The notes under the pieces are model-generated. The model did no database searches. It was not told where the DNA came from and saw nothing but the letters and a program-made list of their open reading frames with translations. From Patescibacteria group bacterium (GTDB taxonomy: Bacteria; Patescibacteriota; Microgenomatia; UBA8517): a stretch of DNA of 64,000 nucleotides. This document shows positions 7,789-47,933 of this stretch, in pieces; positions within the stretch are counted from its first letter, which is position 1, and the number at the start of each line of letters is the position of its first letter. The DNA lies in the NCBI GenBank assembly GCA_035692185.1, contig DASSIE010000010.1, forward strand, positions 2,879 to 66,878, given 5' to 3'. Both the position numbers and the translations under genes were made by a program.

Positions 7789-8842
7789 AATATCTTTCGG
7801 CCCTAATTTTTTCTCGATGTTGCAAATCGTTTAATACAGTGAGCGATTGGAATATTATTAAAATAATTGTAAGAGAGAGTAAATACTTTGTTGATCTGTT
7901 TTTAGCTTCAAATAAAATATTAATGCCATGAGAAATGATAAACAGCACTATTGGAAAAAATAAAATTAAACGATTTAACGGAGCAAATTCGTTTGCAAGA
8001 ATAGCAGGAACAACTAAAACAGTTGAGATAAATAATAATTTTACAGTCTCTTTTTTTTGGAGTAACTTATATAAACCAAAGCCAAACGGTATTATAAAAC
8101 CAAATAAAATTGGCGGACTAAATGAGAAACCTAAAAGTTTATATTCGGGTGTAAAAAAGGCGATTGGACTTAAGAGCGTCGTATAGCGCAATACCAGCGA
8201 TTCTGCAAAGAATATATACTTATTTTCAGAAATTCTAGCTAAGTTTTTGAAACCATCTTGGCTTGCATTGCCTTGATAACGATTAGCCGTATTAACGAGT
8301 GAAGGATCTTCAAATATTTTTACTTCGGCACTGAAGCTACTTACATTTATATTTATAAAAATAGGAAATGTTAGTATTGCCAAAAAAATCACAGAGGTTT
8401 TGATTTGATTGAAACTAACCAACTTCGAGATTAATAGTAATAATAAAATTAGAGGAATAAATATCAAGAAGATAGAAGATATGTACATTGCAATTCCTCC
8501 AGCTACAATAATCAAAATGTTTCCCAACTTTACCTTGTCATTATTAGTCAGAATCACTCCGTAAATAACGGCGAAGGTCAAAAAGAGTAAGAACAGGTAT
8601 AATGAATGTGCGTATGCCAGGTACCACCCCCATGGTGAAACAAGGTAGATTAAGGGAGCGATTAATGAAAAAGGTTTTTTAAACAATGTTTTACTAATTG
8701 CCCAAATAAGTAGTGGAATTAAAATTGGGTAAATAATATAAAAAATATCGTTAACATTGACAATCTTATGTATTAGTTCTGCAAAAAGAAAATTTTGGGC
8801 AGTATAATAAGGAATCATATATGACAAGATTATCATACCCAA
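7757..8842 (-). CDS. Polytopic integral membrane protein (unknown; possibly GT-C-like or polymerase-like)
   Basis: 361 aa, almost entirely hydrophobic helices. No recognisable soluble catalytic motif. Overlaps neighbours at both ends. Confidence 0.3.
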   Translation of the reverse strand: MGMIILSYMIPYYTAQNFLFAELIHKIVNVNDIFYIIYPILIPLLIWAISKTLFKKPFSLIAPLIYLVSPWGWYLAYAHSLYLFLLFLTFAVIYGVILTNNDKVKLGNILIIVAGGIAMYISSIFLIFIPLILLLLLISKLVSFNQIKTSVIFLAILTFPIFININVSSFSAEVKIFEDPSLVNTANRYQGNASQDGFKNLARISENKYIFFAESLVLRYTTLLSPIAFFTPEYKLLGFSFSPPILFGFIIPFGFGLYKLLQKKETVKLLFISTVLVVPAILANEFAPLNRLILFFPIVLFIISHGINILFEAKNRSTKYLLSLTIILIIFQSLTVLNDLQHREKIRAERYFGDKYQITEP

Positions 8843-10299
8843 AAGTAATTGTCTTTCTTTTTGTTCTTGTCACAACCTTCATTCTTAGGGCTCATAATTA
8901 CGAAAAAGTCCCAACACCAAACCATCTTGATGAGATGTTGTATGCCTGGTCAGGCCTTAGCCTGATTGAAACTGGAACCCCAGTATCGTGGTCAACTTTG
9001 GATTATCCTAAAAGAGCTGAAGTATTCAAAGGAGTCATAAATTACAAAGGGGGGAAACCCGATGCCTCAGTTACTCTTTATAAACCTTGGTTGGACGAGC
9101 CACCTCTTTTTTCGCTCTTGGTTGGTGAATTTGCTCACTTATACCATGCAGATAGGAATCAGTTTGTTCCATCATCTTACATACGTATGCCAATGGTGAT
9201 TATTAGCACATTAACCTCAGTTTTAGTTTTTTTAATTGCATTTGAGGTTTCAGGGTTTGTAAGCGGAATTCTTGCAATGACCATATACGGGTTTACCCCA
9301 ATTTTTGTATTTGCGTCCCGTAACGCAATGCCTGAAACTTTAATTGCATTCCTTTTTGCAGTGGCGATATTTTTGATAATAAAATTTTGGAAAAATCCAA
9401 GTATTTATTATATTTTACCAATTCCAATTTTAGCTGGAATTGCTGGCCTTTCTAAACCTACCGGTTTTTTCATTATCCCAATCGCGATTTTTATGGTTTT
9501 TTGGCGAAAATATCAAGATAACCAGATTGTGTTAGGGTTAAAATATTGTACATATTTGCTTTTGGCAACTTTGCCGTTCATTGGGTTTTTCTATTGGTAC
9601 GGTTTTCATTTTGACGCTGAGATTTTTAAGATAATTACCACCATTCAGTCCAATAGGCCAGTAGGATTTGCCAGTCTTGCATGGTTTTTTATTAGTCCAG
9701 CATTTGAAACTAAGATACTGATTGATGGTTGGTATATATTTTGTTTAGTTTCAGCAATATTTTTAATGTTCTCTGCCTCTCAGTTTAGTGAGAAAGACAA
9801 ACTACGCAAAATTGTTGTTTTTGCATTTGTCTATTGGGTCAGTGTCGTAATGGTTTCGGGAGGGGAGCGAGATTTACTTCCCTGGTATAGATTTCCAATA
9901 TTCCCATTTATGGCAATTTTAGGCGCTTGGGGAATTGAATATATACTCAAGAATGTTAATTTATTTACTAGTTTTATTGCAGTTGGGCTTCTTCTAGGTA
10001 ATCGGGTGCTTCTTGTTAACGCATTTCACCCTAATATTTCTGCTACGAATTATAGAATTATTTTCGCATTATTAATGGCCCCGTCAATAATAAATACAAT
10101 ATTTCAAAAGAAATGGCTTGCAAAGCTGTCAAAATTTGTTGTTGGGTTGGCAATTATTACCGGCCTTATTATAAACTTGATATATATCTATATGGCCTTT
10201 GAAATTGAATGCCAGAGTAAGACTTGCACTTTTGTTCCAACGACACCGTTATCAGTTGTGCATTTTCCAATAATATCTAAATTTATGCCAAAATATTAA
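8821..10299 (+). CDS. GT-C fold membrane glycosyltransferase, divergent GT39-like
   Basis: N-terminal TM then a loop with HLDEMLYAWSGLSLIETGTPVSW (DE motif), then many TM helices (492 aa). First gene of a co-directional, translationally coupled run to 19895. Confidence 0.4.
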   Translation: MTRLSYPKVIVFLFVLVTTFILRAHNYEKVPTPNHLDEMLYAWSGLSLIETGTPVSWSTLDYPKRAEVFKGVINYKGGKPDASVTLYKPWLDEPPLFSLLVGEFAHLYHADRNQFVPSSYIRMPMVIISTLTSVLVFLIAFEVSGFVSGILAMTIYGFTPIFVFASRNAMPETLIAFLFAVAIFLIIKFWKNPSIYYILPIPILAGIAGLSKPTGFFIIPIAIFMVFWRKYQDNQIVLGLKYCTYLLLATLPFIGFFYWYGFHFDAEIFKIITTIQSNRPVGFASLAWFFISPAFETKILIDGWYIFCLVSAIFLMFSASQFSEKDKLRKIVVFAFVYWVSVVMVSGGERDLLPWYRFPIFPFMAILGAWGIEYILKNVNLFTSFIAVGLLLGNRVLLVNAFHPNISATNYRIIFALLMAPSIINTIFQKKWLAKLSKFVVGLAIITGLIINLIYIYMAFEIECQSKTCTFVPTTPLSVVHFPIISKFMPKY

Positions 10300-10304
10300 C
10301 TTAT

Positions 10305-11927
10305 ATGAGAAAAATGCTTTTAATTTTAATAGTTGGAGTTGCCTTTTTTTTACGTGTTAACAAAATTACTCAAGTTCCACCTTCTTTAAACTGGGATGAA
10401 GTATCAATTGGCTATAATGCTTATTCAATACTAAAAACCGGCAGGGATGAATGGGGTAAATTTTTACCGGTTCACTTTAAGTCGTACGGGGAATATAAAT
10501 TACCCGCTCAGATATACGCTTCAATTCCGGCAATTGCAATATTTGGGCTTAATGAATTTGGCGTACGGATAACGCCGGTTATTTATGGCACTTTGACGAT
10601 ACTATTTATATATTTTTTGGTGCAGGAAATGTTTGGGAATAAGTATGTGTCATTAACTTCAGCATTTCTCCTGGCAATTTCTCCGTGGCATTTACAGCTA
10701 ACCAGGGCATCATTTGAGTCTTCATTTTCAGTTTTCTGGGTAGTTATCGGAGCATGGCTTTTTGTTAAAGGGTTCAGCGACAAAAAGTATTGGCTATGGT
10801 CGATATTGCCGTTCATTATATCAATATATACCTACAACGCCGCAAGAGTTTTTACACCGATCTTTTTATTTACAGTTTTTATTGTTTACAGAAGGGATAT
10901 CTTAAAAAATATAAAAATTGTCATTTTTGGCCTTTTAATTTTTGCGATATCGATGATTCCTCTAGCTAATTTTTTTGTAAGTGGGGAAGCTACGGCAAGA
11001 TTTAAGTTGGTTAGCATCACAAATGACCCAGGTTTTGTTTTAAGAACAAATGAGGCTAGGGGAAATACCAAGCTAGTGGCTCCGATGCCTAAATTAATCC
11101 ATAACAAAGTAACACACTATGTCTATGTATTTGTTGGAAATTATTTAAGTCATTTTTCTCCAGACTTTCTCTTCATTAGCGGCGCTGGGCATAAACAACA
11201 ACATGTGCAAGGAATTGGAGAGCTTTACTGGATTCAAGCACCATTTATACTAATTGGACTTTATTATCTTTTTAAAAATAAAAACAAATGGAGGTGGCTA
11301 ATTGTTTCATGGTTATTGATAGCATTTATTCCAGTTGCAGTTACTGTAGACAGTATTCCAAATGCATTAAGGACGATATTGGCGGTGATTCCTTACGCAA
11401 TACTCACGGCACTTGGCGTTTGGCAGATTTCTAACCATAGAATTATTATATTAGTATCACTATCAATTTTAATTATCAGCTTTTCAGGATATTTAAATAA
11501 TTACTACAACGTTTATCCAAAGAGCTATTCTCGTGACTGGCAATATGGTTACAAACAGGTAGCTTCATATATAAAAGCTAATTATAATAATTACGATTTA
11601 ATAGTTTTTAGTCGTACTTATGGGGAACCCCATATGTTTACTTTATTTTTCCTAAACTGGGATCCAGCAAGTTTCCAGAACAATCCAAATTTAGATAGAT
11701 ATGAGGCATACAGATGGATTTGGGTTTCTAAGTTCGACAAATTTTATTTCCCAGATTTAGGAGACAGTGGCACTAAATTTGAAGATGTTAAGAAGCAAAA
11801 CAAGGGTAAGAAAATACTGTTTATTGGTAAAGATGGCGATTTTCCCGACTCAGTCAAAAAATTATTGACAGTAAATTTTTTGAACGGCAATCCAGCATTT
11901 GAAATTGTTGAAATAAATGAAAAATAA
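10305..11927 (+). CDS. GT39/GT83-like (PMT/ArnT-type) membrane glycosyltransferase
   Basis: FLRVNKITQVPPSLNWDEVSIGYNAYSILKTGRDEWGKFLPVHFKSYGEYKLP. Polytopic. Conserved C-terminal domain (DWQYGYKQV...YGEPHMFTLFFL). Confidence 0.55.
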   Translation: MRKMLLILIVGVAFFLRVNKITQVPPSLNWDEVSIGYNAYSILKTGRDEWGKFLPVHFKSYGEYKLPAQIYASIPAIAIFGLNEFGVRITPVIYGTLTILFIYFLVQEMFGNKYVSLTSAFLLAISPWHLQLTRASFESSFSVFWVVIGAWLFVKGFSDKKYWLWSILPFIISIYTYNAARVFTPIFLFTVFIVYRRDILKNIKIVIFGLLIFAISMIPLANFFVSGEATARFKLVSITNDPGFVLRTNEARGNTKLVAPMPKLIHNKVTHYVYVFVGNYLSHFSPDFLFISGAGHKQQHVQGIGELYWIQAPFILIGLYYLFKNKNKWRWLIVSWLLIAFIPVAVTVDSIPNALRTILAVIPYAILTALGVWQISNHRIIILVSLSILIISFSGYLNNYYNVYPKSYSRDWQYGYKQVASYIKANYNNYDLIVFSRTYGEPHMFTLFFLNWDPASFQNNPNLDRYEAYRWIWVSKFDKFYFPDLGDSGTKFEDVKKQNKGKKILFIGKDGDFPDSVKKLLTVNFLNGNPAFEIVEINEK

Positions 11928-13263
11928 TTTTATTTTCGCCTTTGTTTTATTTTTATTTCTTGTCTCAAGAATTTATGGAATTGCAGAAATTCCAAAGTCT
12001 GTATATTGGGATGAGGCATCAATTGGATATAATGCATTTTCAATTGCAACTGACTTAAAAGATGAATGGGGAGAAAAGTTGCCATTACATTTTCGAGCAT
12101 TTGGAGAATTTAAACTCCCAGTTTATATTTATACGGTAGCGATTTTTGTAAAAGCAATTGGATTAAATGAATATGCAATAAGACTTCCGGCAGTTTTTTA
12201 TTCATTGGGCTCATTGATACTTGTCTATTTATTAACAAAAAAAATTACAGACAATGAACACACTGCAATTTTTGCAAGTTTTATTCTTATTTTTTCCCCT
12301 TGGTTTTTTATATTTTCAAGAACCGGGTATGAGACAACGGCAGGCCTTTTTTTCTTCTTGTTAGGAACCTACCTTTTTCTTGAGCATACCAAAAAGGGTA
12401 TTTATATTCTCTTTGGAATAATGTCTTTCATTTTGTCATTTTATAGCTATAACTCTTTTAGAGTTATTATCCCGATATGGTTAAGTTTAATGCTGATTTA
12501 CACATACAGTAAAAAGAACATCCCTATAATTATTATTTCGATATCAATTTTTTTGGTTAGTTTAATTCCTGTTTATAGACTTTATAAATTTGATTCGGGG
12601 GGTGCTCGCTTCGCCCAAGTTGAAATTACTAGCAAATTTGATTTTATTAAAAATTATGTTGCCCATTTTTCTCCAAACTTTCTTTTTCTAAAAGGGGACA
12701 CAAATCCTCGCAGCCAAATTCCGGGTCATGGTCAACTTTATTTGTTTGAATTACCACTTTTGCTCCTTGGTTTAGTTGCAATCATTAAGAGCAAAAAAGC
12801 ATTATATTACATACCTTTAATAATTCTTATTTTGGCTCCAATTCCGGCCTCTCTCACTCGTGAGTCGCCACATGCATTAAGATCCCTTCTCGCGGCTCCT
12901 GCTTTTGCAATGATGTCCGCATTAGGAATATATTTTCTGGCGGCCCATTTTAAAAAATACTCAAGCCTAATTGTCTTATTTGTAATAATTTGTTATTACC
13001 TATCCTTTGAGTCATACATGACATCTTTTATAACAAAATACCCATCTCTTTCTGCTTCTGATTGGCAATATCAGTATAAAGAGATATTTGCGACGCAAAA
13101 AAGTGGTAATGTTTCAGATAAATATGCTCAGCCATATATTTTTGCCCTTTATTATTTAAAGTACCCTCCTCAAAAGTTTAGAGATGAAGTTAAATTAAAC
13201 CCAATTAACGATTGGGGGTTTTCTAAAGTCTCATCATTTAACGGATTCAAATTTATAAAATGA
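11917..13263 (+). CDS. GT39/GT83-like (PMT/ArnT-type) membrane glycosyltransferase
   Basis: IAEIPKSVYWDEASIGYNAFSIATDLKDEWGEKLPLHFRAFGEFKLP. C-terminus DWQYQYKEI...PYIFALYYLKYPP. Overlaps the upstream gene. Confidence 0.55.
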   Translation: MKNNFIFAFVLFLFLVSRIYGIAEIPKSVYWDEASIGYNAFSIATDLKDEWGEKLPLHFRAFGEFKLPVYIYTVAIFVKAIGLNEYAIRLPAVFYSLGSLILVYLLTKKITDNEHTAIFASFILIFSPWFFIFSRTGYETTAGLFFFLLGTYLFLEHTKKGIYILFGIMSFILSFYSYNSFRVIIPIWLSLMLIYTYSKKNIPIIIISISIFLVSLIPVYRLYKFDSGGARFAQVEITSKFDFIKNYVAHFSPNFLFLKGDTNPRSQIPGHGQLYLFELPLLLLGLVAIIKSKKALYYIPLIILILAPIPASLTRESPHALRSLLAAPAFAMMSALGIYFLAAHFKKYSSLIVLFVIICYYLSFESYMTSFITKYPSLSASDWQYQYKEIFATQKSGNVSDKYAQPYIFALYYLKYPPQKFRDEVKLNPINDWGFSKVSSFNGFKFIK

Positions 13264-14825
13264 ATAAACTGAAACTAGTTGCCTTATTTTTTATTTTTAT
13301 TTTGGCTGCTGTTTTAAGGTTTTATAAAATTGACAAAGTTCCAGCCTCGCTTAATTGGGATGAGGTAGCGGCTGGTTATAATGCTTACACAATTGCCAAT
13401 TGGGGAGCGGATGAGTATGGTAAAAAGTTCCCAATAGTTTTTAAAAATTTTGGAGACGACAAACACCCTGTTCATATCTATATTACCGCGGCAGTTGTGA
13501 AAATATTTGGATTTTCAGATTATTCAACTCGTGCAGGTAGTGCACTTGTCGGCATGCTTATGGTTGTTGCAATTTATTTTCTTGCAAAAGAAATATTTAA
13601 AAGTGAACTCGCGGGAATTTTATCAAGTTTATTTTTTGCGGTTTCTCCATATGCAATACATTTTTCTAGAGGTTTATGGGAAGCAAATTTTGCGCTTTTT
13701 TTTATGGTTGCCGGAGTTACCGCTTTTTACTTAGGACTTAGGAAACAAAATTTTCTTATTCCGTTATCGTTTTTATTTTGGGGATTATCTTTTTTTTCGT
13801 ATCATTCCGCAAAAATTGTTGTTCCTCCATTAGTTTTATTTCTACTAGTAACTCATTTTAAAGAATTTATTATAAATAAAAAAAATTTGCTTTGGGCGAT
13901 ACTAATAACAATATTTTTTGCAGGCCTCATTATAAAGGAGCCTAGAATATTAGGATTTGCCAGAATTAATCAAACAAGATTTCCTGAAGAAGTAACTCAA
14001 AAATATGGTGGTGAGTTTGGAACAATTGCCCACAATTATAAAGACTATTTTACATATTCATATTTATTTGAAAAGGGAGATCAAACCCCAAGAGGTTCGG
14101 TAAAAGTGATTGGCGAATTTTACAGAATAGATTTTATTCTTTCTCTTGTTGGACTTTCTGTTCTTTTTGTCAAAAAGAAATGGGAAGTTTTGACTATTTT
14201 GTTTTCCTGGCTGTTACTCGCCCCAATTCCAGGTGCTGTATCTTCGGTTGACCCAGGTGCAACAAGGGGGATATTTATGCTAGCCCCGATTTTACTCCTT
14301 TCTGCATATGGAGCAACATCAATTGTACAAATGTTAAAACAAAATTGGGCAAAGTATTTATCAATTGTAGTTATATTAATATTTTTGGGATGGGAAGCTT
14401 TAAACTTTATAAATTACTATTTCAATACTTATCCCGTAAAAGATGCCATTGAATGGCAATATGGGATGAAAGACTCAGTTGCCTATGCTCAGAAGCACTC
14501 CGATTATAGCCTTGTATATATGGACAAAATAAGACAACAGCCATATATTTTCTTCCTTTATTACTTAAAAGTCCCACTTCCCGAGCTCTTGCGTTCGGTT
14601 AAATATGACCAAACAATATCTAGTAGTTACAATACAGTCTCTTCTTTTGGAAAGTACAATTTTGGAAATTGGGATCCAATAGAAAGTTATCCTTCTGCTG
14701 ATATTTTATACATTATTACACCCAGTTTTTATTCAGGGCTAAGATATATATCAAGCTTTGTCGTCCGCAAACTGGTAAAATATCCAGACGGCACTGATGC
14801 CTTCTATTTAGTATCTGGAAAATGA
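13260..14825 (+). CDS. GT39/GT83-like (PMT/ArnT-type) membrane glycosyltransferase
   Basis: FYKIDKVPASLNWDEVAAGYNAYTIANWGADEYGKKFPIVFKNFGDDKHP. C-terminus EWQYGMKDS...PYIFFLYYLKVP. ATGA overlap with the upstream gene. Confidence 0.55.
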   Translation: MNKLKLVALFFIFILAAVLRFYKIDKVPASLNWDEVAAGYNAYTIANWGADEYGKKFPIVFKNFGDDKHPVHIYITAAVVKIFGFSDYSTRAGSALVGMLMVVAIYFLAKEIFKSELAGILSSLFFAVSPYAIHFSRGLWEANFALFFMVAGVTAFYLGLRKQNFLIPLSFLFWGLSFFSYHSAKIVVPPLVLFLLVTHFKEFIINKKNLLWAILITIFFAGLIIKEPRILGFARINQTRFPEEVTQKYGGEFGTIAHNYKDYFTYSYLFEKGDQTPRGSVKVIGEFYRIDFILSLVGLSVLFVKKKWEVLTILFSWLLLAPIPGAVSSVDPGATRGIFMLAPILLLSAYGATSIVQMLKQNWAKYLSIVVILIFLGWEALNFINYYFNTYPVKDAIEWQYGMKDSVAYAQKHSDYSLVYMDKIRQQPYIFFLYYLKVPLPELLRSVKYDQTISSSYNTVSSFGKYNFGNWDPIESYPSADILYIITPSFYSGLRYISSFVVRKLVKYPDGTDAFYLVSGK

Positions 14826-16686: not shown

Positions 16687-17824
16687 AAAAATCACTCTTT
16701 CGTTTTTGATTTGGCGTGTTGCACTTTTTTTAATTGCTTTTTTGGCTATTTATATTATCCCTGTCTATGGTGCTAGATTTCCGTATGTAGATAGGGTATT
16801 GGAAATTACACACCTTCCAAACTGGATTTGGGGATTTGGTGGTTTTGATGGTGTTCATTATCTTCGTATTGCCCAAGATGGTTATTTTGCTCAATTTTCA
16901 CAGGCATTTTTCCCATTATTTCCAATTTTGATTAAGGTTTTTTCATCTATTTTCCCGAGAGTTCCCAATCTTGATACCAATATTTTTACAGACCCTGCAT
17001 ATTTTTATTCAGGATTGATTCTCGCTAATTCATTTTTTCTCGGTTCCCTTTATATTTTATACAAGTTAATACTTATTGATTTCAAGAAGGATGTAGCATT
17101 TTTGACAATTATCCTACTTTTAGTATTTCCAACTTCTTTTTATTTCGGCGCGGTTTACACTGAGTCACTATTTTTGCTTCTCGCAGTGTTATCTGTTTAC
17201 CTTGTTAGGAAGAATAACTTCTTTTGGGCGGCTGTTCTAATTTCACTTGCAACTGCAACAAGAGTTTTTGGTGTGTTACTAATTCCTTTGTATATCATTG
17301 AAGTTGTTAAAAATAAAAATAAACTGAATTATCTTTGGACATTAATCACCCCTCTAGGCATATTGAGCTATATGTATTTTTTAAAAACTGAATTTAATAA
17401 TCCAATTTCTTTTTTAACAAGTCAGCCACTTTTTGGCGCTGGTCGTTCTGGAGGAGAAATAATTCTATTGCCCCAAGTCATATACAGATACTTAAAGATA
17501 TTTGTATCGATTGATCTATCTACATTAGGTTTTTTAAATGCATTTTTAGAATTTACATTTGCGCTCGTTCCATTGACATTTCTGATAGTATTTTTTAAGA
17601 AAATGAGGTTAAGTTACTGGATTTTTTCAGTTGGTACACTTTTGTTGCCAACATTCACTGGAACGTTTTCATCCATGCCAAGATATGTCCTAATCCCTAT
17701 GGTTTTACTTTTCCCAACTCTAATTATCCGATTTAGAAAGTATATTAAACCTGCTATTCTTATTTCTTGTATCCTAGGAGTTATCCTGACAATTTTATTT
17801 ATCAGAGGCTATTGGGTTGCATGA
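16679..17824 (+). CDS. Polytopic mannosyltransferase-like membrane protein (PIG-V/Gpi18-like, GT-C)
   Basis: The first loop motif FGGFDGVHYLRIAQDGYFAQFSQAFFPLFPIL resembles the D..HY..IA..GY...AFFPL signature of the PIG-V family. 381 aa with about 9 TM helices. Confidence 0.4.
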   Translation: MYKKITLSFLIWRVALFLIAFLAIYIIPVYGARFPYVDRVLEITHLPNWIWGFGGFDGVHYLRIAQDGYFAQFSQAFFPLFPILIKVFSSIFPRVPNLDTNIFTDPAYFYSGLILANSFFLGSLYILYKLILIDFKKDVAFLTIILLLVFPTSFYFGAVYTESLFLLLAVLSVYLVRKNNFFWAAVLISLATATRVFGVLLIPLYIIEVVKNKNKLNYLWTLITPLGILSYMYFLKTEFNNPISFLTSQPLFGAGRSGGEIILLPQVIYRYLKIFVSIDLSTLGFLNAFLEFTFALVPLTFLIVFFKKMRLSYWIFSVGTLLLPTFTGTFSSMPRYVLIPMVLLFPTLIIRFRKYIKPAILISCILGVILTILFIRGYWVA

Positions 17825-23178: not shown

Positions 23179-24099
23179 ATGAATAAAAAATTATCAGGTG
23201 TTACCGCAATGATCCCCAGCTTTAACTGTAAAAAAAATCTATTTAGAACTTTAGACTTTTTACTTAAGTCAAATTATCCAAATTTGGAAATAATAGTTAT
23301 AGATAATGGTTCCACTGATGGCACGTGGCAAGAAGGCAAAAAGAAATACAAGAAGGTTAAGTGGATAGACGCGGGAGCAATAAATATTGGCCAAACAGGT
23401 TGTTACAATTTGGGTTTTGCACACGCCAATCCTAAAAATCACGTGATGATGGTTGACTCAGATGTTGTTGTGGATAAAGACATGGTAACAAATTTAGTTA
23501 GTAGACTTGAAAGTAAACCAAAAATTGGAGTTGTCACCCCAATGGTTTTATATTTGAATGATGAAAATTGGGTAAATCAAGCTGGATCAACTGTAAACTT
23601 GTGGACTGGAAAAGTAACAATTGGGTGGGGAGACAGGAAAAATTTTTTAAAGGCAAAAGAAGTTCAAGGTTCAGGAACTGTAATGATATTTAAAAGAAAG
23701 TTAATAGAGACAATTGGTGGATTTGAGGATTGGTTCCTTTGTTATTTTGACCCAGAGTATTCTGTAAGAGGTAAGAAAGCTGGTTTTTCGACTTGGTATG
23801 AGCCAGAGGCAATTTGTTATCACGATCAGGACAAAGATGAGGATTATTGGCGACCAAGGGTAATGTCCCGCGCGTTTTTACTTGGTAAAAACAGAACATT
23901 GTTTATGCGCAAACACGGCAAGAATATTCTGGTTTACATATTATTCACACCTTTGTTATTTGCATATTACCTAAGGGAAGCCATAAGATACAACCTAATG
24001 AATAAATGGTACGAGCTAATTCAAGGCACAATCGCTGGGTTTTTCTATCCGCTTGACCAGCGTGTTAAATTACCTCTTCCGGTAATTGATCCGAGATAA
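23179..24099 (+). CDS. GT2 family glycosyltransferase
   Basis: MIPSFNCKKNL...LEIIVIDNGSTDGT...MMVDSDVVV (DXD). Confidence 0.6.
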   Translation: MNKKLSGVTAMIPSFNCKKNLFRTLDFLLKSNYPNLEIIVIDNGSTDGTWQEGKKKYKKVKWIDAGAINIGQTGCYNLGFAHANPKNHVMMVDSDVVVDKDMVTNLVSRLESKPKIGVVTPMVLYLNDENWVNQAGSTVNLWTGKVTIGWGDRKNFLKAKEVQGSGTVMIFKRKLIETIGGFEDWFLCYFDPEYSVRGKKAGFSTWYEPEAICYHDQDKDEDYWRPRVMSRAFLLGKNRTLFMRKHGKNILVYILFTPLLFAYYLREAIRYNLMNKWYELIQGTIAGFFYPLDQRVKLPLPVIDPR

Positions 24100-24556
24100 T
24101 TTCTATATTACAAAAATGCAAAGACTTAATGACGAGGAATATAAATACGTTTATAGTCGATCTCCCAGATTGTGTGTTGATTTAGCAATTGTTACACCAG
24201 AAGGCCTCCTTCTTTCAAAACGATTAATTGAACCATTCAAAAAGAGTTGGCACTTTCCTGGTGGAAGGGTGATATATAAGGAATCAATTAATGACGCAAT
24301 TTCAAGAATTGCCAAAAAAGAAGTTGGCGTTAAAATTAAAACCGAAGAACTTTTAGGATTTTTGGAAATAATTAATGACGGTGAATATGTTCATAGTGTT
24401 AGTTTAGTATTTATTGTGAAAATTAATTCAGGTGAAGTCAAAGGAGGCGATCAAGCAAAACAATTTAAAGCATTTAAAAAAATCCCAGACAACATGCACT
24501 CTTCGCACAAAAAATTTATTAAAAAATATTGGGCGAAAATATTGCGACTTGCTTAA
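24086..24556 (+). CDS. gmm: Nudix hydrolase, GDP-mannose mannosyl hydrolase (Gmm/NudD/WcaH)-like
   Basis: PRLCVDLAIVTPEGLLLSKRLIEPFKKSWHFPGGRVIYKESINDAISRIAKKEVGV aligns by eye with E. coli Gmm ([49 protein letters not shown]). 156 aa. Confidence 0.6.
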   Translation: MIRDNFYITKMQRLNDEEYKYVYSRSPRLCVDLAIVTPEGLLLSKRLIEPFKKSWHFPGGRVIYKESINDAISRIAKKEVGVKIKTEELLGFLEIINDGEYVHSVSLVFIVKINSGEVKGGDQAKQFKAFKKIPDNMHSSHKKFIKKYWAKILRLA

Positions 24557-24586
24557 TCATTACTTCATATGTTATTTTAATATCCA

Positions 24587-25566
24587 TGACTGAAAAAACT
24601 GCATTAGTCTGTGGAGGTGGAGGTTTTATTGGAAGCCACTTAATGAAATTCCTAAAAGATCGCGGATATTGGGTTAGGGGAGTAGATATAAGGTACCCCG
24701 AATATGGTCCAATCGTCGCTGACGATTTTATTAAAGGCGACTTACGAGATATCAATATTGTTAAGCAAGCTTTAGATATTCCATTCGATGAAGTTTATCA
24801 GTTAGCCGCTGATATGGGAGGCGCTGGCTATATTTTTACAGGTGAACACGACGCCGATGTGATGCATAATTCTGCAACAATTAACCTCAACGTTATGGAG
24901 CAAGCTAAGCAAGTTGGTGCCAAAAAAATATTCTTTTCTTCATCAGCCTGTATTTATCCCGCCCACAATCAAGTAGACCCAGACAATCCGAATTGTGCCG
25001 AAGACTCTGCCTATCCCGCTGCGCCAGATAGTGAATATGGATGGGAAAAATTATTTAGTGAAAGAATGTATTTGGCATATCATAAAAATCACGGTCTGGA
25101 TGTTCGTATTGCACGGTTTCATAATATTTTTGGCCCAGAAAGTGCTTGGAACAATGGTAAAGAAAAAGCTCCATGCGCGATTTGCAGAAAAGTTGCCGAA
25201 ACTCCAGACGGTGGGGAAATGGAGATGTGGGGAGACGGAGAGCAAACCAGATCATTCTTATATATTGATGAGTGTTTGCAAGGCATAAGACGACTTATGG
25301 ACTCAAACTTTATGGGACCAGTTAACATCGGATCAGAAGAAATGGTAACAATCAATGAACTTGCTAAAATGGCTATGAAAATTGCAGGCAAAAAAATTAC
25401 AATTAAACACATCGATGGCCCTCAAGGGGTGAGGGGCCGGAGGTCTGACAACAAATTAATTATGCAAAAACTTAATTGGGCCCCAAACTACCCGTTAGTT
25501 AAAGGTATCGAGAAAACTTACAATTGGATAAAAGGCATGATCGAGAAAGAATCAACCTCACTTTAA
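24587..25566 (+). CDS. GDP-mannose 3,5-epimerase-like extended SDR (start chosen at MTEKTALV)
   Basis: GGGGFIGSHL Rossmann motif. LAADMGG.GYI, FSSSACIYP, YGWEK (YxxxK), RFHNIFGP, EKAPCAICRK, MWGDGEQTRSF.YIDEC and PVNIGSEEMV.INE match the plant/bacterial GDP-mannose 3,5-epimerase (GME) pattern block for block. Confidence 0.65.
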
Positions 25567-26556
25567 AACTTCTTTAATATGATTTTTAAGTTTTTTTGTT
25601 TGTCTGCCATTGAGCAGGAATATCATGTCGTTTGATTTACAATAAATTACATTATCTGTAATAATCCCAGCACGCCATATCAAGTTATAGATTTTTAGAC
25701 TCGTAACAAGCTCAAACATAGGAATAAATAATCTGCCAGTTTTGCAAATACTCCAAAACAATTTGGGAAGGTTTATAGATTTATAATCTACACCTATCTC
25801 TTTATGCATAAATTTACTCATCTGGGCCAAGGTTAGGTGCTCACCATGTAACAGATAAATTTTATTACTATATACTGATGGGGGATTACTTATTGTAGAA
25901 ATTATTGATTGAGCTACGTTGTCTACATGTATCAAACTTGATAATCCTGGCCAATTTAGTCTTGCAAAAATAGATTTCTTTTGAATAAGTCCACTTAGAA
26001 AATCAAACAAACTATCTGGCCTCATGCCAGATCCATAAATAGTGTTTGGTTTTAAAATACTCAATTTAAATCCATCAATTTTTTGTCGTTCAACTAAAAT
26101 ATTTTCGCCTCTTACTTTACTTCTCGTATATTCATTCGTTGGCGACATAGGTGAATATTTACTAAACGGTTTTGAACAATTTATTCTTCCGCTCCATGCA
26201 ACCATGGTTCCAAAATGTACAAAGTGCGTATTGGGTCCTAACTTGCCAAATGTATTTAACAAGTTTTCTACACCAACATCATTACACCTATGGTCTGTAA
26301 CAGCAGTATCGGTAATCGCTGCAAGATTGATTATGACTTCTGGGGATTTGGGTAGATTTTTAAGTCCCTTCTTGGTAACTAAGTTTATGTACTTAGTTTT
26401 AACTTCCATTTCTTTTAACAATTTTCTCCCCTCGATTTCTAACGGGCCGTTGGCATCTTTTATTAAGCATAAAATATTTTTTACACCATATTTTTTAACA
26501 GCCAATTTAATAAATCGCTTTCCAACAAAACCTGTTGCCCCGGTTATTATTATCAT
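25558..26556 (-). CDS. NAD-dependent epimerase/dehydratase family (extended SDR) sugar-nucleotide enzyme
   Basis: MIIITGATGFVGKRF (GxxGxxG), catalytic YTRSK. 332 aa. 3' end overlaps the GME gene. Confidence 0.55.
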   Translation of the reverse strand: MIIITGATGFVGKRFIKLAVKKYGVKNILCLIKDANGPLEIEGRKLLKEMEVKTKYINLVTKKGLKNLPKSPEVIINLAAITDTAVTDHRCNDVGVENLLNTFGKLGPNTHFVHFGTMVAWSGRINCSKPFSKYSPMSPTNEYTRSKVRGENILVERQKIDGFKLSILKPNTIYGSGMRPDSLFDFLSGLIQKKSIFARLNWPGLSSLIHVDNVAQSIISTISNPPSVYSNKIYLLHGEHLTLAQMSKFMHKEIGVDYKSINLPKLFWSICKTGRLFIPMFELVTSLKIYNLIWRAGIITDNVIYCKSNDMIFLLNGRQTKKLKNHIKEVLK

Positions 26557-26625: not shown

Positions 26626-29082
26626 ATGCCTAAAAATAAAAAAAATGTATTAGTAACAGGGTCGGGTGGTTTAATTGGATCTGAGTCAGTGCATTTTTTT
26701 TGCGAAAAAGGATTTAATGTTATAGGAATCGACAATAATATGAGGGAGTATTATTTCGGACAAGAGGCAAGTACGAAAGGTAATGTTAAACAAATAGTTG
26801 ATACATACAAAAATTATAAACATTTTAATTGTGATATAAGGGACTCTGAAAATATTGAAGAAATATTTAAAACTTATAATTTTGATTTAATTATTCATAC
26901 AGCTGCGCAACCATCACATGATTGGGCCGCGAGGGAACCCCAGACTGACTTCAGTGTTAACGCAAACGGGACACTTAACCTGCTCGAGAATTTTAGAAAA
27001 TATTCTCCAAAAGCAGTTTTTATTTATACTTCAACTAATAAAGTTTATGGTGACACACCAAACAAATTGCCACTAATTGAACTAAAAACTAGATATGAGA
27101 TTGAATCAAGTCATAAATATAAAAATGGAATTGATGAATCAATGTCGATCGACAATAGCACTCATTCGTTGTTTGGTGTGTCAAAAGCTTCAGCTGATTT
27201 AATGGTTCAGGAGTACGGGAAATATTTTGGTTTATTTACTGGAGTTTTTAGGGGTGGGTGTCTTACAGGTTCTCGACATGCTGGAACGCAACTCCATGGA
27301 TTTTTGTCGTACTTAATTAAAAGTATTGTTACAGGCAAAAAATATACAATATTTGGTTACAAAGGAAAACAAGTTCGGGATAACATTCATTCACACGACT
27401 TGGTAAACGCTTTTTATCATTTTTATTTAAAACCCAGGATTGGTGAAGTCTATAATATTGGAGGATCAAGATACTCTAACGTCTCGATGTTGGAGGCAAT
27501 TGATAAAATAGAAAAAGTTACAGGCAAAAAAGCCAATGTAGAATATGTTGATGAAAACAGAATAGGAGACCATATTTGGTATGTTTCTTCAGTAAAAAAA
27601 TTTCAATCGCACTATCCAGAATGGAAGTATGAATACGATATAGATGCAACCATTTGGGATATTTGTAAAAATAGTGAATTTGCCAAAGATTTAATTTCAT
27701 TTTCAATTGCAAGGGATTTAGATTATTGGAGAGATAAAAATTGGTATTTTCATAATGCCTTAAAGGATATTTTTAAAACTTTTATTCCAGAGGATTCTAA
27801 AGTGCTTCAAGTTGGGTATGGTTTGGGTGACATATTAGCATCACTTTTTCCAAAAAATGCTTTAAGTGTTGATGACGATCCAAATATAATTATCAGTTCA
27901 ACTAAAAGATATCCCCATATTAGATTTCAGAATTTAGATATCGCCAAAACAAACATAAAAGAAAAATTTGATTATGTGATATTTCCAAACTCAATTGAGC
28001 ACATGTTTGATGTACAAACTGTTTTAGAGAAAGTAAAGAGTAGCCTTCATAAAGATTCAAGAATAATTATCACGTCTGTAAATCCTCGCTGGCAACAGCT
28101 TTTTTCCATATTAGAGAAATTCAAACTTAAAAGACCTGAGGCTCCAAAAAATTGGTTAAGACTTGAAGATCTGGTTAATATTGTTGAAATTTCTGGCTAT
28201 GAAATAGTTAATACAGGCTTTAAAGTTCTTTTACCTACGCATATACCACTTATTAGCAATTGGGTTAATAAGTTTAACTCACGTTTTTGTGTTGAGCAGT
28301 ATTTGGTTGCAAAGTCGAAGATCAAAAGTAAGGCAAAACCACTTACTTGTTCGGTAATAATACCTTGCTTTAACGAGGAGGAAAATATTAAGAAATGTAT
28401 TAATTCCGTGCCGAAGATGGGCAAGAGAACCGAAATAATTGTAGTTGACGACGGGTCAACAGATAAGACTTCAAGTGTTGTTAAAAATTTGATGAAGAAA
28501 AATAAAAATTTAAGATTAATATCATATAAACCAAATAAAGGGAAAGGTTATGCAGTAAAGCAGGGTTTTGATGGTGCCAAAGGGGATGTGGTAATGATTT
28601 TGGATGCTGATATGGCAGTACCTGTATCGGAGTTGCCGAGGTTTTTCAATTTATTAGAGTCTAAAGAAGCTGGTTTTGTAAATGGCACACGTTTAATTTA
28701 TCCAATGGAAGATCAGGCAATGCGGCAATTAAACTTAATTGGAAATCTTGTTTTTGGATGGATATTCTCATGGGTATTAAATCAAAGAATAACAGACACT
28801 TTATGTGGGACCAAAGCATTGCTTAAAAAGGATTATTTAAAAATTAAAATGGGTGGAGAATCATGGGGTGACTTCGACCTATTATTCGGCGCTGCAGAAA
28901 ACAAACTTAAAATCGTAGACATGCCTGTTCACTATATGAGGAGAGTGGCAGGTAAGTCAAAAATGAAAGCATTTCAGCATGGCTTGGTACTAGCTAAAAT
29001 GTGTTTCGTAGGTTGGTGGCGTTTAAAAGCGTCTCCATTATTTCGTAACACGAAAAGAGATGTGAGAAAACGGGTAAAATAA
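26626..29082 (+). CDS. Tri-domain fusion: N-terminal NDP-sugar epimerase-like SDR domain, central class-I-MTase-like domain, C-terminal Dpm1-like GT2 polyprenol-phosphate glycosyltransferase
   Basis: Residues 1-~340: [12 protein letters not shown]...STNKVYGD, resembling CDP-paratose 2-epimerase-type SDRs, but the YxxxK Tyr is replaced ([10 protein letters not shown]). Residues ~380-540: [12 protein letters not shown]...[14 protein letters not shown] (MTase-like fold). Residues ~560-818: [14 protein letters not shown]...[12 protein letters not shown]...[29 protein letters not shown]...[10 protein letters not shown] (Dpm1/ArnC-like). Confidence 0.6.
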
Positions 29083-29592
29083 AGGAGTCTCTACAGGTTC
29101 AACTTCATATTTAAGTTTGTTCTTAACAAATATTTTTTTCCATTGATCAGGACGTCTAAAAGTAAACGGAATGCGCATAAACGGGTTATGAATTTTATTT
29201 AAGATGTAATCAGATATTGTTCCAATTAATGTTGGTTGGACCTCAAAGATTAGAACCTGCTTTGATACTCTTAAGGCGTCAAGGATTAATTTTTCCTGGA
29301 TAGTGTATGGAATATGATGAAGAACATCATTAAACATTGCACTTTTAAACTCATTTCTTTTGAAAGGTAAGGAATCCTCCTTTTTAATTAGTTTAAACGC
29401 GATTTTGTTTGTGAGATATTTTAAGGTATCGCATCCATATATCTTTAAATCGAAATCCTCCGCTATCTGCTTACTCACAACTCCATTTCCGCAACCAACA
29501 TCTACGACCTTTTCGTTTGATTTTAGCCACCTTTGATAAGCCTTAATGATTAACTTACCTCGTATTTTTGATGTGTAATCAGCGAGTGCCAT
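29038..29592 (-). CDS. Class I SAM-dependent methyltransferase
   Basis: [14 protein letters not shown] motif I, FNDVLHHI post-II. 184 aa. 3' end overlaps the convergent tri-domain gene by 45 nt. Confidence 0.55.
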
Positions 29593-31351
29593 ATAGTATT
29601 TCTGATTTTATATCTGTTAGTGAGTTGTCGGGCTCGAGTCTAAAAGCAAAAGTGTTTCTTACATCAATTTTTTTTGCGACACCCCAGTTAAACCCCTTAA
29701 GCTTTTCACCGTCTTTAATGGCTGATTTGAATTGTTCCCTGTTTTCAATTACATATAAACTTCCCGGTCTATCGGGCGACTTTTCATATACGATCATTCT
29801 AGGTATAAAACCAAATGTAATCACATCGCGCACAATACTATCGTTACCGTTTTTGGGCTCAAAATAAAATAAATAATCTTTTTTTGGATCCAGATTGGGT
29901 ATTTTAGTAAGTATGTTTTTCCAAACGGTTTGAGATATATCTTCCGAATGTGTCACGATCAAATTTTTTAAATATGATTGTGTCGAGGAATATTGAATAA
30001 GATAAAGTGGTATAACGAGTAGCGCTAACATAAAATTTTGTAAATTAGATTTTTTAATTGCAAACAATACACCGATTAATATTGCAATTGATATTCCGGG
30101 CGCAATTAAATAACGCATAGCCGATGGGATGTAAGTTAATGGAGTAAAGACAAATGGAACTGCGGCAAATCCGACAAGCCAGAAAAGTCCAATAAATAGA
30201 CTCTTTCTGATATTGTCTTGTTTAGCAAAAAAAATGAGAAGTGTACTCGTTACTATTAATGCGCCACCTACCATTGTCAAAAATACAGTGTTTGGTGACA
30301 TAGTGTTTGTACTTATACGGACAAAGAAATTTATTGTGAATATAAGAATAAGCATTAATAGACATATTGCAATAATAAACTTTTTCCTATTCTTTTTTTC
30401 AATAAGTAAAACACCAAGTGCGGTAAGAACTATCGAAAATAATACCCAAAAAGGTAAAAGGAACGCCCTCAACCAAGACATATTTTGAGCTTTATAGACA
30501 GTACGCGGAATTTGAACATGGTTCATATATTGGTCGGTAAAGATCATATTACCAATTGTCGTTAGTGGGTATAGATATTGTTCATAATGGCCATTTTCCA
30601 TAGCTTCTGAGTTTTCCTTAAGCCCTTTACGGACATATGTATCAAAATTAGAGGATCCCGATCCAAGTACTCCCCAGCTTGAAAGTATAAAGAAGGAAAT
30701 AACCCAAATACTATTTATCAGTATAAATTTTTTAATTGAAACAATACCTTTCCAATTTTTGAAAAGGAAATATGTTTCGATTAAAAACAAAACAATAAAA
30801 GCACCATGCATTCTTACTGGAACAGAAATCACTGAAAGGAGAAATAACGGAACACTTGTTAATAAAAGTATTTTCTTCGATGTTTCGTGATACTTTAAAA
30901 CTAGTGCTACAACTATTAAAAATATCGCTAGTCCTAAATATGAATTCATATTAAAAACCCAATTTGTAGATTCGATACCGATTTCACTAACTGCCCAAAA
31001 TAGACTAGCAACAAAAGCAGATAGTCTATTTTTTGTTATTTGAAAAACTAATATATATAGTGATATCGAAACTAGACTTCGAAAAAATAAAGATGCCGCA
31101 AAATATGGAATAGGGTTTAATCCAAAAAACTTATCGATAATACCCATTATTAAGTATGTTGGGCCATACGGGGAAAGATAGCTTACTAAGTCAAATGGAA
31201 TAGACCCAAAATTACCGTGTTGAACTTGATATTTAAAAATGTAAAGAACTAGCCAGTCATCTCCAAACAAACTGAGGCCAAAACTGAGTCTAAAGGCAAT
31301 TGCTCCGATTATTATTACTAACAAAATTGGCAATATATGTTTTCGAATCAT
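29579..31351 (-). CDS. Polytopic integral membrane protein, putative GT-C-like glycosyltransferase
   Basis: 590 aa with more than 12 hydrophobic helices and short loops. No soluble catalytic motifs recognised. Confidence 0.3.
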   Translation of the reverse strand: MIRKHILPILLVIIIGAIAFRLSFGLSLFGDDWLVLYIFKYQVQHGNFGSIPFDLVSYLSPYGPTYLIMGIIDKFFGLNPIPYFAASLFFRSLVSISLYILVFQITKNRLSAFVASLFWAVSEIGIESTNWVFNMNSYLGLAIFLIVVALVLKYHETSKKILLLTSVPLFLLSVISVPVRMHGAFIVLFLIETYFLFKNWKGIVSIKKFILINSIWVISFFILSSWGVLGSGSSNFDTYVRKGLKENSEAMENGHYEQYLYPLTTIGNMIFTDQYMNHVQIPRTVYKAQNMSWLRAFLLPFWVLFSIVLTALGVLLIEKKNRKKFIIAICLLMLILIFTINFFVRISTNTMSPNTVFLTMVGGALIVTSTLLIFFAKQDNIRKSLFIGLFWLVGFAAVPFVFTPLTYIPSAMRYLIAPGISIAILIGVLFAIKKSNLQNFMLALLVIPLYLIQYSSTQSYLKNLIVTHSEDISQTVWKNILTKIPNLDPKKDYLFYFEPKNGNDSIVRDVITFGFIPRMIVYEKSPDRPGSLYVIENREQFKSAIKDGEKLKGFNWGVAKKIDVRNTFAFRLEPDNSLTDIKSEILYGTR

Positions 31352-47715: not shown

Positions 47716-47933
47716 TTTATTGGATTTTATTAATAATTATTATTATTTTTACAAAATATAAAGTTGCTAGTGGGACTCTCTTTCAAGCAGGTTTAATAAT
47801 GATGCTAGTTGGAGCTTTTTTTGATATTTTTAAACTAACTGATATTTCAGAAATGTTGTTAAGTGCGGCATTAATTCTTTGGGTTGTTGGAATTGTCGGA
47901 ACCTGTATAGATCTATATAAACATAAATTATGA
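47712..47933 (+). CDS. Small hydrophobic membrane protein (73 aa), unknown
   Basis: Two to three predicted TM helices. Translationally coupled (ATGA) between two giant paralogs. Confidence 0.3.
   Translation: MIYWILLIIIIIFTKYKVASGTLFQAGLIMMLVGAFFDIFKLTDISEMLLSAALILWVVGIVGTCIDLYKHKL

Follow-up and report, generated by a model that had tools for sequence, protein, structure and literature searches.

A three-domain protein in a patescibacterial glycan-assembly island

We analysed a 64,000-nucleotide stretch of contig DASSIE010000010.1 (hereafter the window), which is a very large glycan-assembly island of Patescibacteria (candidate phyla radiation, CPR; Microgenomates-like), and focus on an 818-amino-acid (aa) protein encoded within it that joins an extended short-chain dehydrogenase/reductase (SDR), a class-I methyltransferase and a family GT2 glycosyltransferase in one chain. 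Pfam places the three domains in the order proposed in an initial annotation made from the sequence alone, and the motifs quoted there are all in place: GSGGLIGS (aa 12-19), STNKVYGD (136-143), FGVSK (183-187), LQVGYGLGD (394-402), DAD (660-662) and a 10-residue GT2 motif (723-732). The features of the protein, in window coordinates and with the evidence in brackets, are as follows; the F-clade is the group of relatives defined below, and TyvE denotes CDP-tyvelose 2-epimerase.

26626..29082, + strand: SDR-methyltransferase-GT2 fusion open reading frame (ORF), 818 aa (ORF, Pfam and 52 other full-length orthologues)
26626..27693, + strand: extended SDR domain with TyvE-like fold, F-clade member, aa 1-356 (Pfam, PDB matches, Foldseek)
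26659..26682, + strand: NAD-binding GSGGLIGS, aa 12-19 (G12, G15, G18), invariant or nearly invariant in the F-clade
26902..26925, + strand: AAQPSHDW, aa 93-100, with P96-S97-H98 in place of the TyvE VAM sugar-contact segment
27031..27054, + strand: STNKVYGD, aa 136-143, with Thr137 at the catalytic position and TNK kept
27163..27186, + strand: HSLFGVSK, aa 180-187, with Phe183 (nucleotides 27172-27174) at the catalytic-Tyr position and Lys187 kept
27247..27315, + strand: loop, aa 208-230, homologous to TaTyvE Ser192-Trp207, with near-invariant C212, H218 and H224
27769..28209, + strand: class-I S-adenosylmethionine (SAM) methyltransferase domain, aa 382-528 (Pfam, PDB 3cc8)
28351..28995, + strand: GT2 (GT-A) domain of DPMS/ArnC/GtrB type, aa 576-790, with D608, D660-A-D662, D724, K730 and K779
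28969..29076, + strand: C-terminal long helix, aa 782-817, hydrophobic then basic (DSSP on the model)

The ORF is a single unbroken frame from an ATG start to a TAA stop, with an upstream in-frame stop at 26596, 10 codons before the ATG, and its outer domains are matched by the Pfam families Epimerase (aa 8-279, 1e-39) and Glycos_transf_2 (aa 576-738, 7e-33). In an AlphaFold2 model built from 55 co-linear sequences, the structure prediction that had been suggested as a check, all three domains are confidently folded (mean predicted local distance difference test score, pLDDT, 83); the linkers at ~357-361 and ~540-555 are of low confidence, and a predicted template-modelling score (pTM) of 0.57 leaves the placement of the domains relative to one another undefined. 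A database search for the same domain order recovered 52 other full-length orthologues with 56-85% identity, drawn from NCBI metagenome-assembled genomes (Woesebacteria, Daviesbacteria, 'Patescibacteria group'), JGI, ENA and Logan, and an identical 818-aa product was called on a Logan contig that possibly derives from the same sample as the window. One further co-linear homologue, P0057 (L089 8001-10634), is 42% identical overall (SDR 51%, methyltransferase plus GT2 35%) and adjoins cbb3 oxidase genes, its host being a respiring, non-CPR bacterium. That the ORF might instead be an artefact, arising from chimeric assembly or from three genes joined by a frameshift or during gene calling, was a prior possibility raised in the initial annotation to which nothing has since been added, and we regard it as vanishingly improbable in view of the uninterrupted frame with its defined start, the identical Logan product and the co-linear full-length orthologues in independent data from many samples and pipelines, the non-CPR homologue, and the conservation of linker residues among co-linear orthologues. 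The 818-aa ORF is a genuine three-domain protein.

The SDR domain has phenylalanine in place of the catalytic tyrosine

The best PDB matches of the SDR domain in phmmer searches are the CDP-tyvelose 2-epimerases (TyvE/RfbE) 9rl0 (5e-39) and 1orr (1e-37), and its model superposes on 1orr with a Foldseek template-modelling score of 0.91 and a root-mean-square deviation of 2.0 A over ~346 columns, presenting a two-lobed fold with a C-terminal lobe of the type that binds nucleoside diphosphate (NDP) sugars. The GxxGxxG motif is present (G12-S-G-G15-L-I-G18), as is a Rossmann strand-helix pattern in the model. The classical hallmark of catalytic SDRs is YxxxK; here the Ser/Thr plus YxxxK set is only partly represented: Thr137 and Lys187 are present and Phe183 occupies the Tyr position, making the domain an atypical member of the family. 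The segment HSPYGCSKGAAD of 9rl0 and 1orr pairs gap-free with the Phe183 segment of the fusion, aligning Tyr with Phe183 (HSLFGVSK in the fusion, HSPYGCSK in the CDP-tyvelose 2-epimerases). Because the H-S-x-[Y/F]-G-x-S-K-x-x-A-D flanks are identical and align without gaps to both structures, there is no register shift; a Tyr at a shifted position, the observation that the initial annotation had named as refuting its claim of a missing catalytic Tyr, was not seen, and the residue is truly replaced. The three other SDRs of the window do keep their Tyr (YGWEK, YTRSK, YSASK), as that annotation had also stated.

To relate the remaining conserved residues to substrate contacts, F-clade residues were mapped onto those described in a structure and mutagenesis study of TaTyvE (PMC13098431). 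In that enzyme, Lys126 binds both phosphates, R237 and R299 touch the alpha-phosphate, the backbone of the VAM segment (V83-M85) contacts O3, O4 and O6 of the hexose, and the N125A variant is inactive (PMC13098431). K126, R237 and R299 correspond to K139, R251 and R312 of the fusion SDR. Tyr164, by contrast, has become Phe (Phe183), leaving the Thr124/Tyr164/Lys168 triad incomplete; VAM has become P-S-H; Gln205 has become His224; and the mobile Ser192-Trp207 loop is altered (HSSMYGGRQ in TyvE, GGCLTGSRH here). The changes thus cluster at TaTyvE hexose-contact positions, while the NAD- and diphosphate-binding residues are retained.

Across 22 aligned, diverse clade members, G18, D36 and N112 are invariant and G12 and G15 nearly so; the further invariant residues include H91, A93, Q95, P96, S97 and H98; S136, T137, N138, K139, V140-Y141-G142, S181, G184 and K187; R209, G211, C212, T214, G215, H218, H224, G225, F226 and Y229; and Q249-V-R251-D252, R312, G314, D315 and H316.

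TyvE is therefore the closest relative of the domain in sequence and fold, sharing the two-lobed extended SDR architecture, a Rossmann motif of the tight-NAD type, the TNK segment, Thr and Lys at their catalytic positions and the diphosphate-binding Lys/Arg/Arg set, but the two are only 29-35% identical, and the differences in triad, loop, hexose contacts and cytosine binders (see below) make it unlikely that substrate, nucleotide and chemistry are those of TyvE. With the NAD features, Thr/Lys, TNK and both arginines kept while the hexose contacts are replaced, we infer from the alignments that F-clade SDR domains still bind NAD and a sugar diphosphate ester, and that their hexose pocket, nucleotide specificity and proton-transfer chemistry differ from those of TyvE. 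Three of four tested TyvE sequence hallmarks failed, TNK alone being kept, and the domain should therefore not carry a CDP-paratose/tyvelose 2-epimerase annotation.

A large cross-phylum clade shares the replacement

The initial annotation had treated the Tyr-less SDR as possibly a non-catalytic quirk of the fusion, a view that does not fit its distribution: the domain belongs to a large, cross-phylum and mostly stand-alone clade, the F-clade, with the signature AAQPSHD / STNKVYGD / HSxFGxSK / FRGGCLTG / LHGF. Phe is found at the Tyr position (HS[LIV]FG[AV]SK) in 112/120 of the closest database proteins regardless of fusion partner, and a phmmer search with the SDR domain only against 1.84 billion cluster representatives returned mainly stand-alone proteins of ~350 aa with the same signature. 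Of 92 full-length representatives of 50% clusters, 73 carry Phe at position 183, 11 carry Tyr, 5 carry Leu and 3 have some other residue there; H98 is present in 69/73 of the Phe-type representatives, and the Tyr- and Leu-bearing minority share the H98/C212/H218/H224 signature with them. Given this shared His/Cys signature in Tyr-type relatives, the canonical Tyr seems, from the alignment, to be dispensable within what may be called the 'PSHD' super-clade.

A scan of one genome per species identified at least 597 confirmed relatives (600 matched stretches), some of which are possibly canonical TyvE, and canonical TyvE-like proteins may likewise be among the 749 representatives at E <= 1e-30; the Phe type was verified in the inspected subsets only (112/120, 70/70 and 73/92). 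The best 80 of the at least 597 loci are 59-70% identical to the query SDR and come from Cyanobacteria (Nostoc), Bacteroidota (Emticicia, Runella, Flavobacterium), Planctomycetota, Verrucomicrobiota, Acidobacteriota, Proteobacteria (Azospirillum), Nitrospirota, CPR and one Woesearchaeote; these 80 were fetched, and HSxFGxSK is present in 70/70 with a readable motif. Database names for F-clade proteins are only 'CDP-paratose 2-epimerase' or 'NAD-dependent epimerase/dehydratase', no NCBIfam equivalog covers the F-clade SDR or any domain of the fusion, and literature searches turned up no study characterising either the clade or the three-domain architecture, in line with the earlier impression that this architecture is uncharacterised.

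Across 53 co-linear sequences, the SDR is the best-conserved domain of the fusion, with 74% mean identity to the query and 44% invariant columns, compared to 58% and 21% for the methyltransferase and 49% and 6% for the GT2 domain. This is the opposite of the pattern expected for a decaying or merely structural domain, and a decayed SDR was rejected on this basis. Combined with the conservation of the clade across phyla and the concentration of its changes at hexose contacts, it points to a constrained and probably catalytic function.

One 740-aa homologue (P0143) carries a LAGLIDADG intein-like insert within the motif (HSLFGA / C...SGN / SKAAGD), between the Phe and the Lys of Fx3K; inteins are usually located in functionally critical motifs.

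The methyltransferase and glycosyltransferase domains

The middle domain is a predicted SAM-dependent methyltransferase, and methyl transfer is its expected activity. It is matched above the Pfam gathering thresholds by Methyltransf_31 (aa 392-494; 1.5e-9, 38.2 bits vs a cutoff of 27), Methyltransf_23 (27.2 vs 27) and Methyltransf_11 (23.8 vs 21.2), and in the PDB by 3cc8 (6e-7). Motif I reads Q395-V-G397-Y-G399-L-G401-D402, with Gln at the usual acidic position, and the loop is invariant in 53/53 sequences; D416, which the strand pattern of the model places as the SAM-ribose acid at the end of beta-2, is kept in 52/53. The domain also carries P454-N-S-x-E-H459, kept as P-N/D-S-x-E/D-H among orthologues. 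The methyltransferase-like domain of P0057 lacks the glycine-rich motif I (VLELRCETG) and may be inactive.

For the C-terminal domain, the best solved relatives are Pyrococcus DPMS 5mlz, whose alignment spans the entire catalytic domain, GtrB and three structures of ArnC, and the best NCBIfam matches are AglJ, a haloarchaeal Dol-P-hexose transferase, ArnC and PpgS; the polyprenyl-phosphate-glycosyltransferase character assigned to it initially is upheld by these nearest relatives, with no equivalog cutoff reached. D724 is present in 53/53 orthologues, K730 in 52/53 and K779, as K or R, in 47/53, and D608 is nearly invariant. The D724 loop (D-x-x-x-G) aligns with the D-P-V-S-G-F loop of PfDPMS, and the downstream G-x-S-K is present. 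The domain thus resembles DPMS (5mlz), ArnC, GtrB, PpgS and AglJ throughout the catalytic domain, including DXD, acceptor loop and G-x-S-K, but differs from DPMS, ArnC and GtrB in having neither transmembrane helices nor a GtrA-like domain, in lying downstream of an SDR and a methyltransferase, and in evolving fast. According to the model, the helix at aa 782-817 is a possible interfacial membrane anchor.

At the D662 position of the DAD motif (window 28603-28611), Leu is equally common among orthologues, and many are acidic at the middle position instead; the metal site of many orthologues may be built differently.

Genes beside and fused to the F-clade SDR elsewhere

Genes within five positions of a stand-alone F-clade SDR were counted at 70 loci. 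Of these, 41/70 contain a small Dpm1-like GT2 (~245-290 aa, lacking transmembrane segments) and 33/70 a member of a broad SDR cluster, which in ~26 of them is a specific TyvE-like paralogue that contains the Tyr; many loci have no second SDR near the F-clade protein, and no nucleotidyltransferase is consistently associated with it. Stand-alone methyltransferases beside F-clade SDRs elsewhere resemble the 184-aa methyltransferase that neighbours the fusion in the window; with the fusion's own methyltransferase domain they show no homology in BLAST at 1e-4. Orthologous fusions elsewhere lie in similar islands with PMT/PMT_2-type glycosyltransferases of the C-fold class (GT-C) and a Wzx-like flippase, or beside a GT87 GT-C. 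Fused or adjoining partners outside the three-domain orthologues are as follows, where Tyr-paralogue denotes a TyvE-like SDR that contains the catalytic Tyr.

L011, L022 (cyanobacteria): GtrA/DPMS transmembrane domain + partner GT2
L064 (acidobacterium): methyltransferase + GT2 fusion directly downstream of a stand-alone F-clade SDR
P0132, P0176: F-clade SDR + methyltransferase
P0059: F-clade SDR + Tyr-paralogue
P0093, P0099: Tyr-paralogue + F-clade SDR (reverse order)
P0058: GT2 + F-clade SDR (reverse order)
P0060: F-clade SDR + GT4
P0077: GT6 + F-clade SDR
P0086: F-clade SDR + GT8
P0124: F-clade SDR + GT11
P0088, P0136: F-clade SDR + GT26

The 818-aa protein is one instance, found mainly in CPR, of a recurring association of F-clade SDR, methyltransferase and glycosyltransferase, and the fusion joins three activities that are encoded by separate neighbouring genes in other phyla.

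Several of these neighbourhoods have features of their own. On plasmid p5 of Azospirillum brasilense Sp7 (NZ_CP012919 7863-11859; L084), a genetically tractable system for the clade, the Tyr-paralogue WP_059399848 adjoins the F-clade SDR WP_035683210, followed by a radical-SAM protein, and two ~800-aa glycosyltransferases flank the pair. Six Cytophagales loci (L025, L029, L039, L044, L049, L076) have a conserved ORF of ~78-89 aa directly before the stand-alone F-clade SDR, with an N-terminal hydrophobic segment and then a Cys, lipoprotein-like. P0057 is neighboured by a GT87 GT-C and an FkbM methyltransferase.

Proposed function and alternative explanations

Taking the three domains and their homologues together, the reading that we find somewhat more probable than its alternatives combined is that the 818-aa protein is a trifunctional enzyme, in which an active, non-canonical SDR makes a rarer NDP-sugar that is probably methylated and loaded on polyprenyl phosphate for GT-C enzymes. 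The SDR domain would convert a common NDP-sugar to a rarer one with tightly bound NAD and without the SDR Tyr, the methyltransferase domain would methylate the sugar before or after transfer, and the GT2 domain would attach it to polyprenyl phosphate at the membrane surface; once flipped, the sugar would be transferred by nearby GT-Cs to a cell-surface acceptor. Proton transfer could proceed through transient NAD+-dependent oxidation with a relay of the Thr137-His98-Asp99 type, or through Cys212/His acid-base chemistry next to a keto group, both being candidates because the residues occupy hexose-contact positions of TaTyvE. The architecture, the Phe, the conservation pattern, the network of neighbours and fusions and the fold are direct results of the analysis; catalytic competence of the SDR, the replacement base, the order of the steps, the sugar and nucleotide involved and the lipid acceptor are all inferred. 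Transfer to polyprenyl phosphate is suggested by analogy, from the GT-C neighbours of the fusion and from the GtrA fusion of the analogous partner GT2. More tentatively, and with clearly less confidence than in the trifunctional enzyme as such, we raise the possibility that the F-clade is a new mechanistic class that uses a His/Asp or Cys/His relay to produce an unrecognised or unassigned activated sugar, common to many bacterial phyla, which in CPR would be methylated and delivered on polyprenyl phosphate to GT-Cs by one protein.

Parts of this scheme have precedents. In the Arn pathway (ArnA-ArnB-ArnC-ArnT), an SDR-type sugar modification is followed by undecaprenyl phosphate loading and GT-C transfer. 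The initial annotation had drawn an analogy to ArnA and ArnC, which is useful as logic and does not extend to the proteins themselves: ArnA, which combines formyltransferase and decarboxylase functions, has a canonical Tyr, and ArnC is a separate protein. Pentofuranose three-component systems (PPPRS / ORF13 epimerase / GT136; PMC11127046) share with the Arn pathway and with the proposed scheme an SDR-type step, loading of undecaprenyl phosphate and extracytoplasmic GT-C transfer, and GT-C enzymes are encoded near the fusion as in three-component glycosylation systems; the SDRs of the Arn and pentofuranose systems, however, keep YxxxK and the enzymes are separate, unlike the single chain with a Tyr-less SDR described here. 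The UDP-GlcNAc 4,6-dehydratases WbpM and PglF are likewise nucleotide-sugar SDRs without the catalytic Tyr, and they are active, using the Thr/Asp of a TDK segment as base (PMC8987622). They differ in belonging to another SDR family (Polysacc_synt_2) and in having Met at the Tyr position, where the F-clade has Phe, together with TNK and no Asp.

Several observations weigh against the trifunctional enzyme. The canonical SDR base is absent, the proposed His/Asp or Cys/His replacement bases come from homology mapping, and with TNK rather than TDK in the F-clade segment the Thr/Asp relay of PglF is not available and was ruled out. The cytosine binders of TyvE, Trp207, Trp210 and Phe211, align with F226, Y229 and L230 and are not kept. 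A Tyr-paralogue of 345-374 aa lies at most two genes from the F-clade SDR in ~26/70 loci, and this pairing, which recurs within single chains (P0059, P0093, P0099), would also fit a non-catalytic partner. The clade is fused to glycosyltransferases with differing textbook donors (UDP-Gal/GalNAc for GT6, GDP-Fuc for GT11, UDP-ManNAc(A) for GT26), which is awkward for a single 'donor X'. As for the acceptor, the GT2 domain scores below every NCBIfam equivalog cutoff (at best 97.9 bits vs 325, for AglJ), the second DXD aspartate, D662, is present in only 16/53 orthologues (D660 in 51/53), and hydropathy analysis finds no transmembrane segment in the fusion (maximum KD-19 score 1.13), so that polyprenyl phosphate is a putative acceptor and the fusion would need to act peripherally or at the membrane interface. 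Some members of the DPMS family, such as human DPM1, also lack transmembrane helices.

The foremost alternative, which we judge unlikely but take seriously, is that the Tyr-less SDR is a pseudo-enzyme that binds NAD(H) and/or an NDP-sugar without turnover and serves its partner as a regulatory (redox- or donor-sensing), chaperoning or scaffolding subunit, comparable to the catalytically silent partners in heteromeric SDRs or to sensors of the NmrA/HSCARG type. In its favour, the canonical base is lost, and in E. coli GalE the Y149F exchange lowers activity ~10^4-fold. Fusion to at least six mechanistically unrelated glycosyltransferase families, to methyltransferases and to a canonical SDR is the pattern expected of a general-purpose accessory module, and the F-clade protein often lies beside a catalytically complete TyvE-like paralogue (which matches 1orr at 1e-41) and is sometimes fused to it in both orders. 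Against a pseudo-enzyme, F-clade SDRs remain 59-70% identical across phyla, compared to 54-57% among the Tyr-paralogues compared and 49% for the fused GT2, and polar residues are near-invariant at hexose-contact positions, which in a pseudo-enzyme ought to be under relaxed constraint. The His/Cys signature is constant among proteins that differ in having Tyr, Phe or Leu, many loci have no second SDR nearby, and active Mx3K SDRs exist (PMC8987622).

It is less likely still that the SDR acts after the GT2 domain, oxidising, epimerising or otherwise modifying a sugar already on its polyprenyl-phosphate carrier. SDR epimerases that act on lipid-linked sugars and are encoded near polyprenyl-phosphate synthases and GT-Cs are documented, with DprE1/DprE2 on decaprenyl-P-ribose, ORF13 on undecaprenyl-P-ribofuranose and WreQ on an undecaprenyl-diphosphate (Und-PP)-linked keto-sugar as precedents (PMC11127046). 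The commonest partner of the F-clade is a Dpm1-like GT2, GtrA-fused in cyanobacteria and with GT-C-like membrane proteins nearby; the lack of a consistently associated nucleotidyltransferase would also fit, and the fusion puts all activities at the membrane. However, the C-terminal nucleotide-binding lobe is complete and K139, R251 and R312 are conserved, which fits an NDP or diphosphate ester better than a lipid monophosphate; the clade consists mostly of soluble stand-alone proteins with no membrane-binding element; and its fusions extend to GT4, GT6, GT8 and GT11, families that do not make polyprenyl-phosphate sugars.

About equally improbable is a third alternative, in which the F-clade SDR works as an NDP-hexose dehydratase that needs no Tyr, with the neighbouring canonical SDR as its ketoreductase; together they would yield a (6-)deoxy sugar for subsequent methylation and transfer. 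Where two SDRs are paired, they are most often a dehydratase and a reductase, 4,6-dehydratases typically show very high conservation across phyla, an SDR-SDR fusion exists (P0059), a canonical YTRSK SDR is conserved beside the CPR fusions, one F-clade protein is fused to a GT11-like domain of the fucosyltransferase family, and the sole known active Tyr-less nucleotide-sugar SDRs are 4,6-dehydratases (PMC8987622). The acid/base pair that defines such enzymes ([ST]DE, [ST]DK or [ST]SE) is nevertheless absent, the clade having TNK like the epimerase TyvE, and many loci lack any second SDR. A canonical 4,6-dehydratase is unsupported for the same reason, there being no TDE, TDK or TSE segment.

To our knowledge, the Mx3K dehydratases WbpM and PglF are the only established exceptions to YxxxK among sugar-nucleotide enzymes. 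The F-clade suggests that there is a further one, far larger and spread over many phyla, with its own near-invariant replacement signature, which public databases mislabel as 'CDP-paratose 2-epimerase', and its web of fusions to GT2, GT4, GT6, GT8, GT11, GT26, methyltransferases and the Tyr-paralogue ties it firmly to glycan assembly. The fusion itself is a modest curiosity. The main interest lies in the mis-annotated clade, whose Fx3K motif comes with a distinct invariant pocket; knowing its reaction might uncover new sugar-nucleotide chemistry and supply a step so far missing from envelope-glycan assembly, of relevance both to CPR bacteria, whose cell surfaces are almost unknown, and to cultivable hosts in which genetics is feasible (Nostoc, Emticicia, Runella, Azospirillum, Deinococcus).

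Genes around the fusion in the window

The fusion is surrounded by further genes for the modification and transfer of sugars, of which those closest to it and the GT-C genes are as follows.

8821..14825, + strand: four tandem paralogous PMT_2-type GT-Cs (492, 540, 448 and 521 aa)
16679-17824: PIG-V-like GT-C
24086..25566, + strand: Nudix hydrolase and SDR resembling GDP-mannose-3,5-epimerase (GME; SSACIYP, YGWEK), overlapping, conserved in the same CPR clusters
25558..26556, - strand: canonical SDR (YTRSK), 332 aa, divergently oriented from the fusion, conserved beside the fusion in other CPR genomes
29038..29592, - strand: stand-alone class-I methyltransferase, 184 aa, convergent, with a 45-nucleotide overlap with the end of the fusion
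29579..31351, - strand: polytopic membrane protein, 590 aa, ~10 hydrophobic segments
37602-39818: AftD-like GT-C

A tblastn search of the window found no TyvE-like Tyr-paralogue, the sole match being the F-clade SDR itself (29%); CPR fusions are accompanied instead by a YTRSK-family canonical SDR together with a GME-like one. The YTRSK SDR of the window is 44-56% identical to its counterparts at three other CPR loci (L085_329, L087_335, L088_333b), and the 184-aa methyltransferase is 56% identical to the neighbour at one of them (L087). The YGWEK SDR, which we take from its signature to be GME-like, is conserved near the fusion at the same three loci (L085, L087, L088), and it hints at a GDP-sugar pathway of the L-galactose or L-gulose type in CPR bacteria.

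PMT_2-type GT-Cs use polyprenyl-phosphate sugars, and the window is unusually rich in GT-Cs for a small-genome CPR bacterium; the four PMT_2-type enzymes and the PIG-V-like and AftD-like GT-Cs are candidate users of the sugar that the fusion would load. The 590-aa polytopic protein is a candidate GT-C consumer of a lipid-linked sugar; neither it nor a 610-aa membrane protein has a Pfam match. F-clade SDR/GT2 modules are repeatedly accompanied by polytopic proteins of 540-640 aa that match neither Pfam nor NCBIfam ('memb605' of L069 and L029, and window 29579-31351) and that may constitute an undescribed GT-C family.

The island also holds several GT2 and GT4 genes, several methyltransferases, a UDP-GlcNAc-2-epimerase-like gene and a hexapeptide acyltransferase. 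A second fusion of GT2 and methyltransferase, 532 aa long, lies at 41881-43479 with the order reversed (GT2 N-terminal, methyltransferase C-terminal), and two very large ORFs of 1181 and 917 aa lie at 44170-47715 and 47930-50683.

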